This document shows, piece after piece, positions 24,247-29,998 of a stretch of 40,985 bases of DNA; the first letter of the stretch is position 1, and each line of letters begins with the position of its first letter. This DNA is from Candidatus Heimdallarchaeota archaeon (GTDB taxonomy: Archaea; Asgardarchaeota; Heimdallarchaeia; Heimdallarchaeales; Heimdallarchaeaceae). The translations under genes and the position numbers were made by a program. The notes beneath the pieces are model-generated. The model ran no database searches and was not told the origin of the DNA. It saw only the letters and a list, made by a program, of their open reading frames with translations. The stretch lies in the NCBI GenBank assembly GCA_016839945.1, contig JAEOTE010000096.1, positions 1 to 40,985 on the forward strand. The letters are read 5' to 3'.

Positions 24247-24777
24247 GTGACAATCATTAGAAAACAGAGAATAATTAAAGACTATGAATCCTTAAGGAAG
24301 CTTCATAAAGAAGGAATTATTGGACAAGTGAAATCCTTTCCAAAGAAGAAGAAATCTATGGAACATCTGGCTATTGGTTTTAAGGCTCCTAAAGGAACAC
24401 CCTATGAAGGAGGAAAATATAAACTAGAAATCCTTTTTGGTCCAAATTATCCTTACAAACCTCCATTTGTAAGACTTCACACTTTTATTTGGCATCCAAA
24501 CTTTTGGAGCAATCCTAAAGAGTACCCAGGCAAAAGAAACATATGTTTAGCATTAGTTGATAATGAGATGGTAGGTAAACATGACGGTTGGTCTCCCGCT
24601 AAAAACATTACTACAGTTATTCATTCAATATTAGCAATGTTTAATGTTGAAGGAGCATATGTTAACCCTAAGGATGTTTTTAACAGAGAAGCTGCTTTAG
24701 AGTTCTTAAGAGATAAGAAAAAATTCCTAAGAAAAGCAAGAGCAGTAAGTAAAAAATACGCTACCTCTTACTGGTAA
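24247..24777 (+). CDS. ubiquitin-conjugating enzyme E2
   Basis: GTPYEGG, YPYKPP, WHPNF, active-site ICL, WSPA. GTG start. Confidence 0.95.
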   Translation: MTIIRKQRIIKDYESLRKLHKEGIIGQVKSFPKKKKSMEHLAIGFKAPKGTPYEGGKYKLEILFGPNYPYKPPFVRLHTFIWHPNFWSNPKEYPGKRNICLALVDNEMVGKHDGWSPAKNITTVIHSILAMFNVEGAYVNPKDVFNREAALEFLRDKKKFLRKARAVSKKYATSYW

Positions 24778-24797: not shown

Positions 24798-25532
24798 ATG
24801 GGTATTGGTGTATTGACAATGGACAAAGAAGAAGATATTCCTGAACAGTACAAAGAACTTATGAGAAAAATAGAAGCTATCGAGAAAGCATTAGGACTCT
24901 CAGATATTGATAAAATAGTTGAGGATATCGAAAAAGAAAGAGAAATAGTTATCACTGAAGAAGATATTCAAATAACTCCTGAAACTGAAATAATCATTAA
25001 ACCTAAAGCATATCTCAAACTAGCAAAACATGCTTTATCATATGCAAATTCATTTATCCCAAAAAAAGATTGGATAGAAATTATAGGTTTATTAACAGGA
25101 CGAATAAAAAACGAAGAAACTCCTTTAGAACAAATTATTGTTGAGGATTATTGGCCTGTTGATCAAGGTGATGCTGTTAGTGTAGAAATTGTCGATCAAA
25201 AAATCTTTACAGAGATTTTCCATAAAAAAGATTCAAAACATTTCATAATTGGTTGGGCTCATTCCCATCCTAGTTATACTCCCTTTCTAAGTGATGATGA
25301 TTTTAGAACACATCTAAGATATCAAACATTTTGGAATAAATCCATAGCTGTTGTGATTGATCCTATACAAATATCCTTGGATGATTATGGATTAGGTGTT
25401 TTCAGAATAAAAGATGATAAGCGATCATATCATGAATTAACAAAAGAAGTTGAAGGAATGAGTACTGTAGCAAGTTATGAATCTATAGAGATGTTTATGA
25501 AAAATCAGTTTAAAGAAAAAAACAATCAATAA
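24798..25532 (+). CDS. JAMM/MPN+ metalloprotease (Rpn11/CSN5-like deconjugase)
   Basis: EIIGLL, GWAHSHPSYTPFLSDDD (HxH-x7-S-x2-D), AVVIDP. Acidic helical N-extension. Confidence 0.93.
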   Translation: MGIGVLTMDKEEDIPEQYKELMRKIEAIEKALGLSDIDKIVEDIEKEREIVITEEDIQITPETEIIIKPKAYLKLAKHALSYANSFIPKKDWIEIIGLLTGRIKNEETPLEQIIVEDYWPVDQGDAVSVEIVDQKIFTEIFHKKDSKHFIIGWAHSHPSYTPFLSDDDFRTHLRYQTFWNKSIAVVIDPIQISLDDYGLGVFRIKDDKRSYHELTKEVEGMSTVASYESIEMFMKNQFKEKNNQ

Positions 25533-25553: not shown

Positions 25554-26657
25554 TTGGACTTGAATAACATCAAAGTATATGCATCTATAGCTATTGTAGG
25601 TACAATGGTTGGGGTATTATATCTAGCAATTCAAAAAGATTTACCTGTTGCATTAATTTTCTTTTATGTTACACTTTATGTTGTTGTCACACTACGTTAT
25701 GTTCTAGAAAGAAGACATTATAAAAAACATAAAGCAGCTTTAGCTAGTTCTCAATTCCTGTTATTACCTTTTAGCGTTATGCTAATGGGGAACTATATCT
25801 CTCCAGCTGCTGCTAATCCTAGAATTTTCTTAATAAATATTGATCTTGTTGGGGGGGATTCTCTACGAATTTTCTTTAATATCATTTCGCTATCTATGAT
25901 TATCCCATTAATAGTTCTCTCATTACATTTCAATAATTTCTATTCAGGAAGATGGCCTGCAATGGCTATTAATAGAAAAATAAAAAGAAAGAAAATAATT
26001 CCAATACTCTTTTTCACTTCCTTTGTTTTCATTTTACTAATTGGTTTCTTCATAAATTTGACAATTGATTTTGTTAGTTTAATTTTTGTACTTATCTACA
26101 TCGTTCTCTCAATAAACCATTTTATTGTTGCTCCAGCTAGAAGTGCAAGAGTAAGGGCAATTCAAAGAGCTCCAACAAGTACAACTAGAAGAACAGCATC
26201 TACAACTAGGCAACAAGTCCGCACAGTTCGTTCGAGTTCAACAAGAGCAAGGCGCACTACTTCAACTACAGCTTCTAGAACTACTAGAACCGCTCAACGT
26301 TCTACAGCACGTGTTGCTATTGATCCAGGGATAGATGTAAGGACTACAAGAAAAACCACTGCAAAAGCTGTATCTACCAAGATAACAGATAAAAATATAT
26401 TCCCTATTGGTAAGGTTTCAAGTTCTGAATTGAAATGTATAATCTGTTATATGGATTTTAATAAGAGAGATACAAGAAGAGTTGTTCTTTGTCCTCATTG
26501 CAGATATCCAGCTCATGAGGATGAATTCTTGAATTGGTTCAAGACTTCCAAACTTTGTGCAAGATGTAACAAACCTATCTCAACCAAATACATTAAGAAA
26601 CCTATATACAGACTAACTACAAAAATATATATTGAAAGAGTAATTGAAAAAGTATAA
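25554..26657 (+). CDS. multi-pass membrane protein with C-terminal RING-variant domain (putative E3 ligase)
   Basis: About 6 TM segments in aa 1-190, an R/T/S-rich linker, then CxxC-x14-CxxC-x4-H-x2-E-x3-W-x6-CxxC. Confidence 0.8.
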   Translation: MDLNNIKVYASIAIVGTMVGVLYLAIQKDLPVALIFFYVTLYVVVTLRYVLERRHYKKHKAALASSQFLLLPFSVMLMGNYISPAAANPRIFLINIDLVGGDSLRIFFNIISLSMIIPLIVLSLHFNNFYSGRWPAMAINRKIKRKKIIPILFFTSFVFILLIGFFINLTIDFVSLIFVLIYIVLSINHFIVAPARSARVRAIQRAPTSTTRRTASTTRQQVRTVRSSSTRARRTTSTTASRTTRTAQRSTARVAIDPGIDVRTTRKTTAKAVSTKITDKNIFPIGKVSSSELKCIICYMDFNKRDTRRVVLCPHCRYPAHEDEFLNWFKTSKLCARCNKPISTKYIKKPIYRLTTKIYIERVIEKV

Positions 26658-27343: not shown

Positions 27344-27991
27344 CTACTTTCGTGGTTTTTTCTGTTTAGGAATCTTTTGTTTTGGAATCTTCTGTTGAGG
27401 AATTTTTTGTTTAGGTATCTTTCTTTCTACTTCTTTTATTTGGGTAGTAACAGGTTCTTCTCTTTCTTTCTTCTCTTTCTCCCTTTCTTCTTTTGGAGCA
27501 GGTTTAGATTCTTTACTTTCAATTTCAGAGAACTTATCACTATCATTAACAGGAGGTGGAACTGATTTCTTTTCTTTTTTCTCTTTTTCTGGACTTATAA
27601 TATTTTCAACAGGTTTCTTTTCTTTTAGTTTTGTTTTTTGAGGTGGTCGAGTTTCCTTAGGTTTCTTCTGCTTTGTGTGTGTGTCTTTAGGAATGTAATT
27701 TATAGGCTTGGAGCTTGTGATTTTATCTTGTTTAGGTATCTTTGATTTAGGGATTTTTTGCTTAGGAATGGATTTACTTTTCTTTTCAGTTCTAAAACTT
27801 GTTAAATCGGATTTTGGCGGTTTTGAAGAATCTATTTTTTTCTTCTGTTTTTTTGGTGGAACTATATAATCCTCCCTGATTTTCTGTTTAGGGGGTCCAT
27901 CTGATGGAATTTTTGTTTTTGGTATTTTATCAGATGGTATTTTCTGTTTAGGAATCTTCGATTTTACTTTACTTTTTTTCTTCTTAGCCAT
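27344..27991 (-). CDS. lysine/proline-rich low-complexity protein with KIPxx pentapeptide repeats
   Basis: About 30% Lys by manual count. Ten KIP motifs in three blocks. ATG start MAKKKK. Repeat codons vary synonymously. Confidence 0.75.
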   Translation of the reverse strand: MAKKKKSKVKSKIPKQKIPSDKIPKTKIPSDGPPKQKIREDYIVPPKKQKKKIDSSKPPKSDLTSFRTEKKSKSIPKQKIPKSKIPKQDKITSSKPINYIPKDTHTKQKKPKETRPPQKTKLKEKKPVENIISPEKEKKEKKSVPPPVNDSDKFSEIESKESKPAPKEEREKEKKEREEPVTTQIKEVERKIPKQKIPQQKIPKQKIPKQKKPRK

Positions 27992-28232
27992 CTGTAATTC
28001 ACATCAATATGTTAAATTCCTATTATAATTTGTTTTTAATCAAATATATTATTTCTGATAGTTAAAGAATTACTCTTTTTAATTTAATCGCTTCTTTATT
28101 GAGTTATGCGTAAAAAAACCAAATTTAAAACATTAAAGTGGAATGTTTATCAAATAGGAAACTAAAGTAATTTTTAAAAGGCAATTTATATAAGTAAAAC
28201 TCGATATATTAATATCTAAAAGGTTGATAAAA

Positions 28233-28583
28233 ATGAGCGAAGAATTTGAAGAATTATCGTTTGATGAAGAAGAGGAAGAAGTAGTAGAAGAAACTGAAAT
28301 AGTTTCAAAGACTCCCTCAACAAAAACTCCCGCAGGAAAGAAAATAAGTGTATATTTCCAAAGTACAATTGGTCCAACTCCAAAACAAGAAAAACTTGTT
28401 GTTGCAACTGAAACACCTATCAGTGATCTCAAATATACTGTAAGTCAAATATTTGGACTTCCTCCAGAGGAATTTCATCTATCTCACGCAGGAAGAACAT
28501 GCGATCCTGATGACATTCTAGAAGATTATGGGGTTGAAGATGGAGATACAATGCTCCTAATACCAGTTTCAACTGCAGGATAA
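28233..28583 (+). CDS. ubiquitin-like protein with acidic N-terminal extension, ending ...STAG
   Basis: PISDLK..GLPPEEFHLSHAG..LEDYGVEDGDTMLLIPVSTAG aligns without gaps to ubiquitin residues 22-76. ATG at 28233. Confidence 0.9.
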   Translation: MSEEFEELSFDEEEEEVVEETEIVSKTPSTKTPAGKKISVYFQSTIGPTPKQEKLVVATETPISDLKYTVSQIFGLPPEEFHLSHAGRTCDPDDILEDYGVEDGDTMLLIPVSTAG

Positions 28584-28601: not shown

Positions 28602-28636
28602 AAAGAGACATAACAATAAGAAAGTCTCTTTTTTTA
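28602..28636 (+). terminator. hairpin plus T-tract after the Ubl gene
   Basis: AAAGAGAC (28602-28609) and GTCTCTTT (28624-28631) form an inverted repeat that runs into poly-T. Confidence 0.45.
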
Positions 28637-28738: not shown

Positions 28739-29998
28739 ATGGAAAACAAATCTAGTGATAAATCAAATTTTTTTAGTGAAGTATTATCAGCTGACGAAAG
28801 GATAAGATTTGATAGACAATTACGATTACCAGGTTGGAATCAGAAAGCACTAAAGGATTCAACTGTACTAATTGTTGGTGTAGGTGGTTTAGGTACTGAG
28901 ATTGCTAAAAATCTAGCAATGGCTGGAGTTGGAGTGCTTCATCTTATTGATTTGGATATAATTGAGCATTCCAACCTCAATCGACAGATATTGTTCTATG
29001 ATGCTGAGGAAGGGGAGCCAAAATCCAAAGTAGCTGCTCGTACATTAAAGAAAATCAATCCTCATAGCAGATACTTTTGGCATTACTCTAATTTGGAGGA
29101 TGTGAATCCTGAAATCTATGCAAAAGCTGATTTATACATCTCTGGACTTGATTCAGTTACTGCAAGAAACGAATTAATGAGACGTGCTGTTCAATTTAAG
29201 AAGCCTATGATTGATGGAGGAACAGCTACGTATTATGGTCATGTTTATACTTATTTACCTAATGTAAATTCCTGTCTTCAATGTGATCCTCAGAGAGAAC
29301 GAGAGAGAGAAACTCTAGCAGCTTGCACTCTTGTAGGTATTCCAAGAAAAAGATCGCATTGTCTTCTAAAAGGTCAATTGTTCTTTGAATCAAAACATAA
29401 TAGACCTCCAGACACAACAGAAATGGATGAAGTTAAAATCGCGTTAGATTATGCAAATGATTTAATTAAAGAACATTTTCCAGAAACTGGATTATTTACA
29501 ATAGATGAAGCTGTAAAGATGATTGATCAACATGATCCAACTGTTATTTCAATAAATGCAGTTATTGCATCATTACAAACCCAAGAAGCTCTGAAATTGC
29601 TTCATCATCTCAAAGGAATAGAACTAGGTGTAGTAAACCCAGAATACCTTATCTACAATGGATTGGTTGGAAAATTCTTCTATTTAGAAAAACCACCAAA
29701 CAAGAAATGTTTACTATGTGGTGATAACGCACCAATAATAGAAGAAATAGAATTACCTAGAAGTTCTACTCTAGATATGTTGTATCCAATACTAAAACAA
29801 AGGGGATATCATTTTGATCCTGAGTTTTTACCAAGTTTCTGGCTTGTGGATAAAAAAGAGATGAGTGAAGCCAAAAGAAACAACACGCTTGTTGAAGCTG
29901 GTATTAGGGATTTTGAAACAATTTATGTAACAGGTCTTACAAAGAACAATGAGGAAAAAGATGTTTATGTAAGAATCCTCTTGAAGAATACAAAATAA
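28739..29998 (+). CDS. ubiquitin-activating enzyme E1 (ThiF family, UBA3/UBA2-like)
   Basis: RFDRQ, VGVGGLG, SNLNRQ, CLQC and CLLC zinc motifs, catalytic AACTLVGIPRKRSHC, C-terminal ubiquitin-fold-like TLVEAGIRDFETIYV. Confidence 0.93.
   Translation: MENKSSDKSNFFSEVLSADERIRFDRQLRLPGWNQKALKDSTVLIVGVGGLGTEIAKNLAMAGVGVLHLIDLDIIEHSNLNRQILFYDAEEGEPKSKVAARTLKKINPHSRYFWHYSNLEDVNPEIYAKADLYISGLDSVTARNELMRRAVQFKKPMIDGGTATYYGHVYTYLPNVNSCLQCDPQRERERETLAACTLVGIPRKRSHCLLKGQLFFESKHNRPPDTTEMDEVKIALDYANDLIKEHFPETGLFTIDEAVKMIDQHDPTVISINAVIASLQTQEALKLLHHLKGIELGVVNPEYLIYNGLVGKFFYLEKPPNKKCLLCGDNAPIIEEIELPRSSTLDMLYPILKQRGYHFDPEFLPSFWLVDKKEMSEAKRNNTLVEAGIRDFETIYVTGLTKNNEEKDVYVRILLKNTK

Follow-up and report, generated by a model that had tools for sequence, protein, structure and literature searches.

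We analysed a 40,985-nt contig of a Candidatus Heimdallarchaeota archaeon (JAEOTE010000096.1; the whole stretch is referred to as the window) and found that the open reading frame (ORF) at 28233–28583 encodes a ubiquitin-like protein (Ubl) of a pan-Asgard family, here called 'STAG'. Taken together, the data make it likely that the STAG Ubl is the modifier of a self-contained Ubl-conjugation system widespread in Asgard archaea, in which it would act with a UBA3-like activating enzyme (E1), a conjugating enzyme (E2), an Rpn11-like JAMM metalloprotease and a membrane-anchored RING protein. This reading is built on features that were observed directly, i.e., the family membership, fold, register against ubiquitin and conservation of the protein, its operon linkage, its precursor forms and the presence of two systems in these organisms. 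The gene and its parts are as follows:

28233–28583, + strand: STAG Ubl gene, 116 amino acids (aa) plus TAA stop
28233–28298, + strand: acidic arm, aa 1–22, with 13 acidic and 0 basic residues and the motif S-E-(E)-F-E-[DE]-L-x-F
28299–28343, + strand: Lys/Thr/Pro box, aa 23–37, I-x-S-K-T-P-x-x-K-T-P-A-G-K-K, including K26, K31 and K37
28344–28562, + strand: beta-grasp core, aa 38–110, with a long Pro-containing β1-β2 loop (S-T-I-G-P)
28563–28580, + strand: C-terminal tail P-V-S-T-A-G, Gly116 being the presumed adenylation and conjugation site

Family membership, fold and register against ubiquitin

The ORF (ATG at 28233, TAA at 28581–28583, + strand, product of 116 aa) is not a chance one, since it scores above the cut-off of the Pfam ubiquitin profile (PF00240; 28.1 bits against 25.4), 263 related loci turned up in a scan of 185,579 species genomes, and the ratio of nonsynonymous to synonymous substitution rates (dN/dS) over the fold is as low as 0.04 (13 orthologues from the same genus, synonymous divergence ~0.5). 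The Pfam profile matched all 24 family members tested, and the protein belongs to the ubiquitin family on both profile and beta-grasp topology. Its identity as a Ubl, proposed earlier from the DNA letters alone (hereafter, the sequence-only reading), is thus borne out by Pfam, hhalign, fold and conservation.

The family is not confined to the genus under study. A word-based search retrieved 87 close relatives of similar length from Heimdall-group metagenome bins, and a STAG profile matched 196 of 400 Asgard genomes at an E-value of 1e-5 or below; the best of these matches listed score ~136–207 bits and span nearly the whole protein, arm included, and one large genome family carries 3–5 copies per genome. 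Among the best 80 of the 263 loci, the lineage-level labels are all Asgard (Heimdallarchaeota, including AB_125, Kari-, Hod-, Hermod- and Odinarchaeota, and Promethearchaeota/Loki), many of these records being labelled merely 'uncultured archaeon' or 'archaeon'. A 97% identical copy of the Ubl lies in a record labelled 'Candidatus Thorarchaeota archaeon' (L040, JBHLQZ010000166.1), while all its other near relatives bear the label Heimdallarchaeota; labelling or binning probably accounts for this. Conservation was scored in 86 close relatives and 35 phylum-wide sequences, and in a combined analysis of 121 sequences.

Two AlphaFold models give a predicted local distance difference test (pLDDT) score of 88–95 over residues 40–110 and agree on the secondary structure (β1 37–44, β2 51–58, α1 63–74, β3 81–85, a 3-10 helix at 96–99, β5 106–111). 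The best Foldseek match is Caldiarchaeum ubiquitin (6fno_D, E 2.2e-7), with ubiquitin also at about 1e-7. VIA returned Z scores of 13.6–15.0 to the ISG15 C-domain, ubiquitin, NEDD8 and Caldiarchaeum ubiquitin (CsUb), the ISG15 C-domain leading with Z 15.0 (root-mean-square deviation 1.2 Å, 79 residues) and ubiquitin reaching Z 13.7 (1.2 Å, 74 residues). Hence, in sequence and fold the protein lies nearest to ubiquitin, ISG15 and Caldiarchaeum ubiquitin, and the modelled fold appears to be a plain ubiquitin-type beta-grasp, not assignable to one eukaryotic paralogue.

The sequence-only reading had compared the protein with ubiquitin 22–76 in a gapless alignment, and all nine positions given there were correct when checked by hand: K67=K27, T69=K29, I73=K33, S84=I44, R88=K48, D103=K63, V112=R72, T114=R74 and A115=G75. 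This register, in which the Ubl residue number equals that of ubiquitin plus 40, was reproduced by four independent methods. A family profile run against ubiquitins of the Protein Data Bank (PDB) kept the offset of 40; hhalign aligned the family with ubiquitin at 89.7% probability and a score of 38.5, with L55 opposite ubiquitin L15; the secondary structure of the two AlphaFold models agreed with it; and the VIA structural alignment placed residues 38–114 of the model on ubiquitin 1–74, with 74 residues aligned. The sole length difference within the fold is the β1-β2 loop, 3 residues longer than in ubiquitin. A register shift that would restore equivalents of I44 or K48, which the sequence-only reading had named as grounds for its own refutation, was looked for with hidden Markov models, hhalign, AlphaFold and VIA, and none was found.

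Within the fold, the family bears the signature F-H-L-S-H-A-G-R-T-x-D where ubiquitin has Q-R-L-I-F-A-G-K-Q-L-E, and in the 121 sequences T45, G47, P48, K54, K67, T69, F74, F81, H82, S84, G87, T89, D91, Y99, G104, L108–I110, P111, S113, T114, A115 and G116 are invariant or nearly so. Of the 86 close relatives 85 have Ser at the I44 position, as do 34 of the 35 sequences from across the phylum. At the K48 position (88), Heimdall-type sequences have Arg and Loki-type ones Val, and position 103, the equivalent of K63, is Asp, Asn or Glu. Lysines equivalent to K48 and K63, reported missing by the sequence-only reading, are absent throughout the family, and the loss of K48, K63 and I44 is therefore a family trait. 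Accordingly, the protein is not ubiquitin proper: in place of the LRLRGG tail, Ile44 patch, Lys48 and Lys63 it has IPVSTAG, S84, R88 and D103, and all four departures are conserved across the family. Yet the earlier statement that the protein cannot use the I44 patch was too strong. The Ser at the I44 position stands, but the residues around it stay hydrophobic and conserved (I46, equivalent to L8; L108, to H68; I110, to V70), and judging from the homology to ubiquitin the patch would be remodelled around a Ser/His centre rather than abolished. Two further lysine positions, K51 and K54, had been overlooked because only ubiquitin 22–76 was compared: position 51 is Lys or Arg in 99% of the sequences and lies near ubiquitin K11, an equivalence that is only approximate because the β1-β2 loop is 3 aa longer, and Lys54 is conserved in 98%.

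C-terminal tail, precursor forms and operon

The 3' end of the ORF reads cca gtt tca act gca gga taa, which places Ala-Gly directly before the stop; as the sequence-only reading had stated, the gene in the window encodes no propeptide, its stop codon following right after Gly116. I110, P111, A115 and G116 do not vary in the 121 sequences, S113 (at least 90%) and T114 hardly vary, and conservation drops abruptly past G116. Many relatives, however, continue beyond this point: among 85 with an S-x-A-G end, 31 stop right at the Gly and 54 add 1–13 unrelated residues, a one-residue cap being present even in a relative ~90% identical to the Ubl of the window.

Moreover, whole units are repeated head-to-tail in P0089 (3 units, found in two independent assemblies), P0238 (3 units) and P0090 (2 units). 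In all three the acidic F-motif of the next unit begins straight after HSTAG or VSTAG, and the final unit bears a two-residue cap. Natural poly-Ubl genes were seen at L031:59–1177 and in the proteins P0089, P0238, P0090 and P0118; they are an archaeal counterpart of polyubiquitin genes. Together, propeptides and polyproteins give strong indirect evidence that Ala-Gly would be the mature end, that an endopeptidase cutting after Ala-Gly belongs to the system and that each mature unit carries the arm. The Rpn11-like JAMM would be the obvious candidate for this protease, by analogy with the Rpn11 homologue of Caldiarchaeum (CsRpn11). The sequence-only reading had reserved the JAMM for deconjugation rather than maturation, which fits the gene in the window but not the family, where the 54 propeptides and the polyproteins imply Ala-Gly processing.

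A word-based search for longer relatives found the tri-Ubl P0238 as its sole match; an exhaustive search returned mostly eukaryotic polyubiquitins, but also recovered fusions of the Ubl with other proteins. Loki-type loci contain, between Ubl paralogues, a membrane protein of ~270 aa with a divergent Ubl domain at its end, which finishes in ALIPSKKK and has no Ala-Gly; by its sequence, this Ubl would be non-conjugatable and membrane-tethered. Large proteins with a C-terminal Ubl domain and an SKTP box end in SSRAG or STAG. Examples are a P-loop NTPase-like protein (GxxGxGKT) of 564–585 aa and coiled-coil or acidic proteins; such proteins may conjugate themselves as cargo.

L019:5768–6613, L022:8332–9135, L023:8986–9792, L024:7399–8196: membrane-tethered Ubl proteins
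L026:8796–10550, L025:9694–11454; P0145, P0117, P0136: large Ubl-fusion proteins

Clusters of Ubl, E1, E2, RING and JAMM genes have been known since the first Asgard genomes. In the window, the enzymes that accompany the STAG Ubl are these:

24247–24777, + strand: E2 (UQ_con), Pfam UQ_con 88.2 bits, with an HPN motif
24798–25532, + strand: Rpn11-like JAMM/MPN metalloprotease, Pfam JAB 46.7 bits, the presumed AG-specific processing and deconjugating enzyme
25554–26657, + strand: membrane protein with a basic S/T/R-rich linker and a C-terminal RING (weak zf-RING_2 match), the presumed ligase (E3)
28739–29998, + strand: E1 of 419 aa, ThiF family, Pfam ThiF 176.7 bits

All but one of the 16 longer loci, which come from distant lineages, keep the order Ubl (1–3 copies)-E1-E2-JAMM-membrane RING, and a RING-less membrane paralogue follows the operon in Heimdall-class loci. 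Of 30 loci, the window among them, 29 have the E1 next to the Ubl, and the E2 lies within the operon in 15 of the 16 longer loci. The best PDB matches of the E1 are UBA3 (115 bits over residues 39–329), SAE2 (111.9 bits) and Uba1, with UBA5 at 46 bits; those of the E2 are generic ubiquitin E2s of the canonical UBC type, UBC9 being among them at 50.5 bits; and those of the JAMM, which is kept in the operon, are the Caldiarchaeum Rpn11 homologue (6fju/6fjv) and then Rpn11. With a stop after the invariant G116 and linkage to E1, E2, E3 and protease genes, the Ubl has the features of a modifier with a dedicated cascade.

In the genus of the window the operon is rearranged to E2-JAMM-RING-TM, followed by an antisense Lys-rich gene and then Ubl-E1. 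The antisense gene (27344–27991, − strand), which encodes a Lys/Pro-rich repeat protein and lies between the membrane genes and the Ubl, occupies the same place in 13 of 13 same-genus loci and is missing from the operons of the other Asgard lineages, which makes it an insertion at the level of the genus that came with the rearrangement. Just 3' of the Ubl stop, an 8-bp inverted repeat (aaagagac ... gtctcttt, 14-nt loop) is followed by a T run at 28602–28635; this terminator-like repeat between Ubl and E1 could raise the expression of the modifier above that of the E1. Upstream of the gene there is a TTTATATA box at 28185–28192 and the following element; roles in transcription or translation may be ascribed to both boxes from their sequence.

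28222–28227, + strand: GGTTGA, Shine-Dalgarno-like box, 6 nt 5' of the ATG at 28233

From these components we infer a cycle of catalytic steps. The JAMM would cut after the invariant Ala-Gly where a propeptide or a next Ubl is present, the product of the gene in the window being ready-made. The E1 would then adenylate Gly116 and take the Ubl onto its catalytic Cys, the Ubl would be handed to the Cys of the E2, the membrane RING would steer its transfer to target lysines at or near the membrane, and the JAMM would reverse the modification. The IP[VA]STAG tail and the polar Ser/His surface may keep this tag orthogonal to a 77-aa Gly-Gly ubiquitin with an E1 of its own, which is described below.

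The N-terminal arm

An extension ahead of the Ubl fold, put at ~35 aa by the sequence-only reading, is real and measures ~37 aa. A start at TTG 28224 was ruled out: the relatives all begin with MSEEF or MSEF, the TTG sits within the GGTTGA box, and ATG 28233 is favoured because the homologues share the MSEEF start. The possibility that the arm is untranslated was likewise ruled out by its dN/dS of 0.12, its phylum-wide conservation and its presence inside the polyproteins. The label 'acidic N-tail' given to it earlier holds for aa 1–22, but it missed two conserved motifs. Both are conserved across the phylum, and F5 of the N-terminal motif is present in 84 of the 86 close relatives and in 34 of the 35 sequences that represent the phylum. 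Residues 23–37 hold four lysines, and in the Lys/Thr/Pro box K26 is conserved in 91%, P28 in 97%, K31 in 93%, P33 in 92% and K37 in 95% of 86 sequences; the box is also retained in the Ubl fusion proteins. Mean pLDDT over residues 1–30 is ~41–53 in AlphaFold runs with 24 and with 121 sequences, and among the 13 same-genus orthologues dN/dS is 0.15 in the acidic part and 0.10 in the Lys/Thr/Pro box (0.12 overall). The arm is thus disordered yet under purifying selection.

Given this, we regard the arm as a disordered region with two conserved short motifs that would most likely serve as a docking or acceptor element. Its acidic EF-E-[DE]-L motif may pair with the basic linker in the RING protein, and the lysines of SKTPxxSKTP are candidate chain acceptors. 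The acidic arm has a parallel in the RING proteins, which in each of the 16 Asgard lineages inspected carry a basic S/T/R-rich linker ahead of the RING, with a net charge over 90 aa of +3 to +22 (+6 to +22 in 15 of the 16, the +3 sequence being part-masked).

26130–26390 of the window: basic S/T/R-rich RING linker, also present in the RING genes of L015–L030

The sequence-only reading had favoured a mono-modifier, or chains built through lysines of the arm. The 91–95% conservation of K26, K31 and K37 makes such chains plausible, but position 51 (Lys/Arg), K54 and K67 of the fold are conserved at least as strongly, hence the acceptor site cannot be inferred. Alternatively, the arm may be only a recognition handle and not a SUMO-style chain acceptor, a view that we hold to be quite possible, if short of probable. 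It could provide a docking motif for the RING linker, the E1 or the JAMM, or an unstructured initiation site for an unfoldase or proteasome, in the way that the disordered Pup serves as an initiation site for Mpa. The most conserved residue of the arm is indeed not a lysine but Phe5, in an acidic F-x-x-L context; in the polyproteins the arm starts directly after each Ala-Gly cleavage site; the RING protein keeps its basic linker across the phylum; and both AlphaFold models leave the arm disordered. However, the three lysines are highly conserved too, fusion proteins without the acidic part still retain the SKTP box, and neither AlphaFold model gives the arm a confident contact. The handle and chain-acceptor roles are not mutually exclusive.

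A second ubiquitin, alternative readings and related systems

The genome of the window contains, at a contig end, a second ubiquitin that scores 50 bits to Pfam ubiquitin and ends in ARTKGG-F, followed by genes for a 334-aa E1 and a UBC-fold protein (L001, G000:C129:1–1695); a further canonical E2 and a second JAB protein are encoded elsewhere in this genome. In a more complete genome of the same genus (L033:4210–8216) the order is Ub (77 aa)-E1-UEV/Vps23core/Vps28 fusion-?-Vps36, and the 334-aa E1 is MoeB/ThiF-like over its full length. This cluster is the published Heimdall locus linking ubiquitin with the endosomal sorting complex required for transport (ESCRT), whose ubiquitin binds the UEV via V45, the Ile44 equivalent (PMC9192718). 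Five Asgard genomes from four families each encode a short Gly-Gly-type ubiquitin together with further, weaker matches to the ubiquitin profile. In four of these genomes the mapped STAG gene is among the weaker matches; G015 reaches only E 2e-6 with the STAG profile. The ESCRT-linked Gly-Gly ubiquitin, known also from HeimAB125 (PMC9192718; bioRxiv 10.1101/2023.07.25.550441), resembles the STAG Ubl in being a ubiquitin-family beta-grasp modifier of the same organisms. It differs in its length of 77 aa, its Pfam score (50–53 bits against 28), Val at the I44 and Lys at the K48 position and an end of TKGG plus one residue, and its E1 is shorter and MoeB-like (334 aa), whereas that of the STAG Ubl is UBA3-like and has 419 aa. 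The Ala-Gly Ubl is a second, paralogous system, set apart by its enzymes and by its gene neighbourhood. The tails I-P-V-S-T-A-G and A-R-T-K-G-G and the differing surfaces look as would be expected of non-cross-reacting pathways, an argument that Fuchs et al. made for CsRpn11 and CsJAMM.

A specific relationship to SUMO, beyond the layout, is very improbable. The sequence-only reading had called the architecture SUMO-like, and the arm is indeed of the SUMO type, being disordered and lysine-bearing and preceding a fold without the I44 patch; moreover, Rad60-SLD weakly matches 22 of 24 family members, the E1 scores nearly as high with SAE2 as with UBA3 (111.9 and 115 bits), and UBC9 is among the matches of the E2. 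Yet for the Ubl of the window Rad60-SLD stays below its cut-off (23.3 against 23.8 bits), ubiquitin outscores it in 24 of 24 members (best family E-values 5.3e-9 and 3.4e-6), the 60 best PDB sequence matches contain no SUMO chain, and SUMO2 ranks only 28th among the Foldseek matches. The end is Ala-Gly instead of Gly-Gly, and the arm has no ψ-K-x-E site, since the +2 position of its I-V-S-K-T-P is not acidic. In the operon there is one ThiF E1 gene and no SAE1/Aos1-like partner, a JAMM instead of Ulp/SENP (the rest of the genome was not searched for Ulp) and a membrane RING instead of an SP-RING. What survives of the SUMO comparison is thus an architectural analogy. Kinship with UFM1, with the STAG Ubl as an archaeal homologue or ancestor of this single-Gly modifier acting at a membrane-anchored ligase, appears improbable as well, if less so. 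The C-terminal spacing is the same (I-I-P-x4-G in UFM1, L-I-P-x4-G in STAG), both have a long Pro-containing β1-β2 loop, hhalign puts loop and tail in register, and the presumed E3 is membrane-bound, as is the UFM1 ligase at the endoplasmic reticulum. In addition, a 2026 paper describes 'Ufm1 homologues' that were detected by structure in nine Asgard clades and show long disordered termini and partial or multiple hits (PMC12962969), a description that would fit the STAG family and its fusions; the two could be the same. The Pfam Ufm1 profile (PF03671) has no match above its cut-off in 400 Asgard genomes, nor in the genome of the window, and these 'Ufm1 homologues' are therefore not classical UFM1. 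However, for UFM1 hhalign gives 1.7% and a score of 17, against 89.7% and 38.5 for ubiquitin; Pfam Ufm1 matches 0 of 24 family members at E-values up to 10; and the E1 prefers UBA3 to UBA5 (115 against 46 bits). The E2 is UQ_con with an HPN motif and not UFC1-like, and the protease is a JAMM, with no Cys protease of the UFSP type. UFM1 is not among the 50 best matches listed by Foldseek or VIA, below which a match may still stand. Membership of UFM1 thus failed on every profile test and is opposed by enzymes of a non-UFM1 type, and should the STAG family be the published 'Ufm1 homologues', its enzymes argue for a ubiquitin/NEDD8-type rather than a UFM1-type cascade.

It is hardly tenable, finally, that the protein is not conjugated at all, i.e., that it is an adaptor of the Dsk2/ubiquilin type or a sulfur carrier of the MoaD/ThiS/Urm1 type. 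The UBL domains of Dsk2 and ubiquilin are among the best matches, and non-conjugatable Ubl domains of the same family end the membrane proteins of Loki-type loci; but the terminal Ala-Gly is invariant, conservation ends exactly there, polyprotein precursors exist, the linkage to E2, RING and JAMM, none of which a sulfur carrier needs, is constant, and Pfam shows no rhodanese domain in the E1. The reading of the STAG Ubl as the modifier of its own conjugation system has, nevertheless, several points to contend with. To our knowledge, the cognate modifiers of canonical UBA1/2/3-type E1s all end in Gly-Gly, and activation of an Ala-Gly end by a canonical E1 is therefore without precedent. Conjugation, linkage type, targets and protease specificity are all read from the gene context. 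Even an AlphaFold run on 121 sequences yields no confident contact for the arm, hence a docking role is structurally unsupported, and the complementarity of basic linker and acidic arm is a correlation of two conserved features. Furthermore, about half of the 400 Asgard genomes give no profile match, and given this the family is not essential.

More tentatively, and with rather less chance of being right, we suggest that Asgard archaea run two orthogonal pathways, one with the ESCRT-linked Gly-Gly ubiquitin and the other with the membrane-RING-linked Ala-Gly modifier, whose arm would be a functional module in its own right (an E3 docking site, a chain acceptor or an initiation handle for an unfoldase). 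If so, parallel modifier systems and modifier polyproteins either predate eukaryotes or arose independently in their closest relatives. If the STAG Ubl is conjugated as proposed, the diversification of Ubls seen in eukaryotes, with ubiquitin beside SUMO, NEDD8 and UFM1, has an Asgard counterpart; parallel tagging pathways are not confined to eukaryotes. The published work on Asgard ubiquitin that we found is confined to Gly-Gly ubiquitins tied to ESCRT, and in our literature search neither the Ala-Gly end nor the conserved motifs of the arm nor the polyprotein genes turned up. STAG would add a second modifier that is just as widespread and has its own enzymes. Since no Lys or Arg follows R88, trypsin would leave a remnant of 28 residues, and the conjugates would all escape standard di-Gly remnant proteomics. 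The system is small enough for reconstitution in vitro.

The STAG system shares partial likenesses with several known ones. With SUMO it has in common a lysine-bearing disordered arm before a beta-grasp domain that lacks the Ile44 centre, and both run parallel to ubiquitin; SUMO's Gly-Gly end, ψ-K-x-E site and heterodimeric E1 are all absent. UFM1 likewise shows a single terminal Gly after a small hydrophobic residue, the I-P-x4-G spacing, a long loop and a membrane-anchored ligase, but works with enzymes of the UBA5, UFC1 and UFSP types, while those of STAG are of the ubiquitin, NEDD8 and Rpn11 types. Like eukaryotic polyubiquitin, P0089, P0238 and P0090 are head-to-tail proteins that need a cut after the terminal Gly and have a capped last unit; each STAG unit, however, carries a disordered arm of 35–50 aa, so that the beta-grasp domains do not directly abut, and the Ubl of the window is a single, uncapped unit. 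The closest characterised system is the ubiquitin operon of Candidatus Caldiarchaeum subterraneum, which has been reconstituted in vitro and in which CsRpn11 cuts both the CsUb precursor and conjugates (PMC5654768, PMC6043591). The two share the gene set of Ubl, single-chain E1, UBC-type E2, RING and Rpn11-like JAMM, the best single-domain sequence matches include CsUb chains (33 bits), and many STAG relatives are made with a short propeptide, as is CsUb. The gene in the window lacks a Caldiarchaeum-type propeptide after Gly-Gly, and those of the 54 relatives among 85 always follow Ala-Gly. Finally, CsUb has a Gly-Gly end, no N-terminal arm and a small soluble RING, whereas the STAG family combines an Ala-Gly end, a 37-aa disordered arm, Ser at the I44 position and a membrane RING, and its members can be made as polyproteins.

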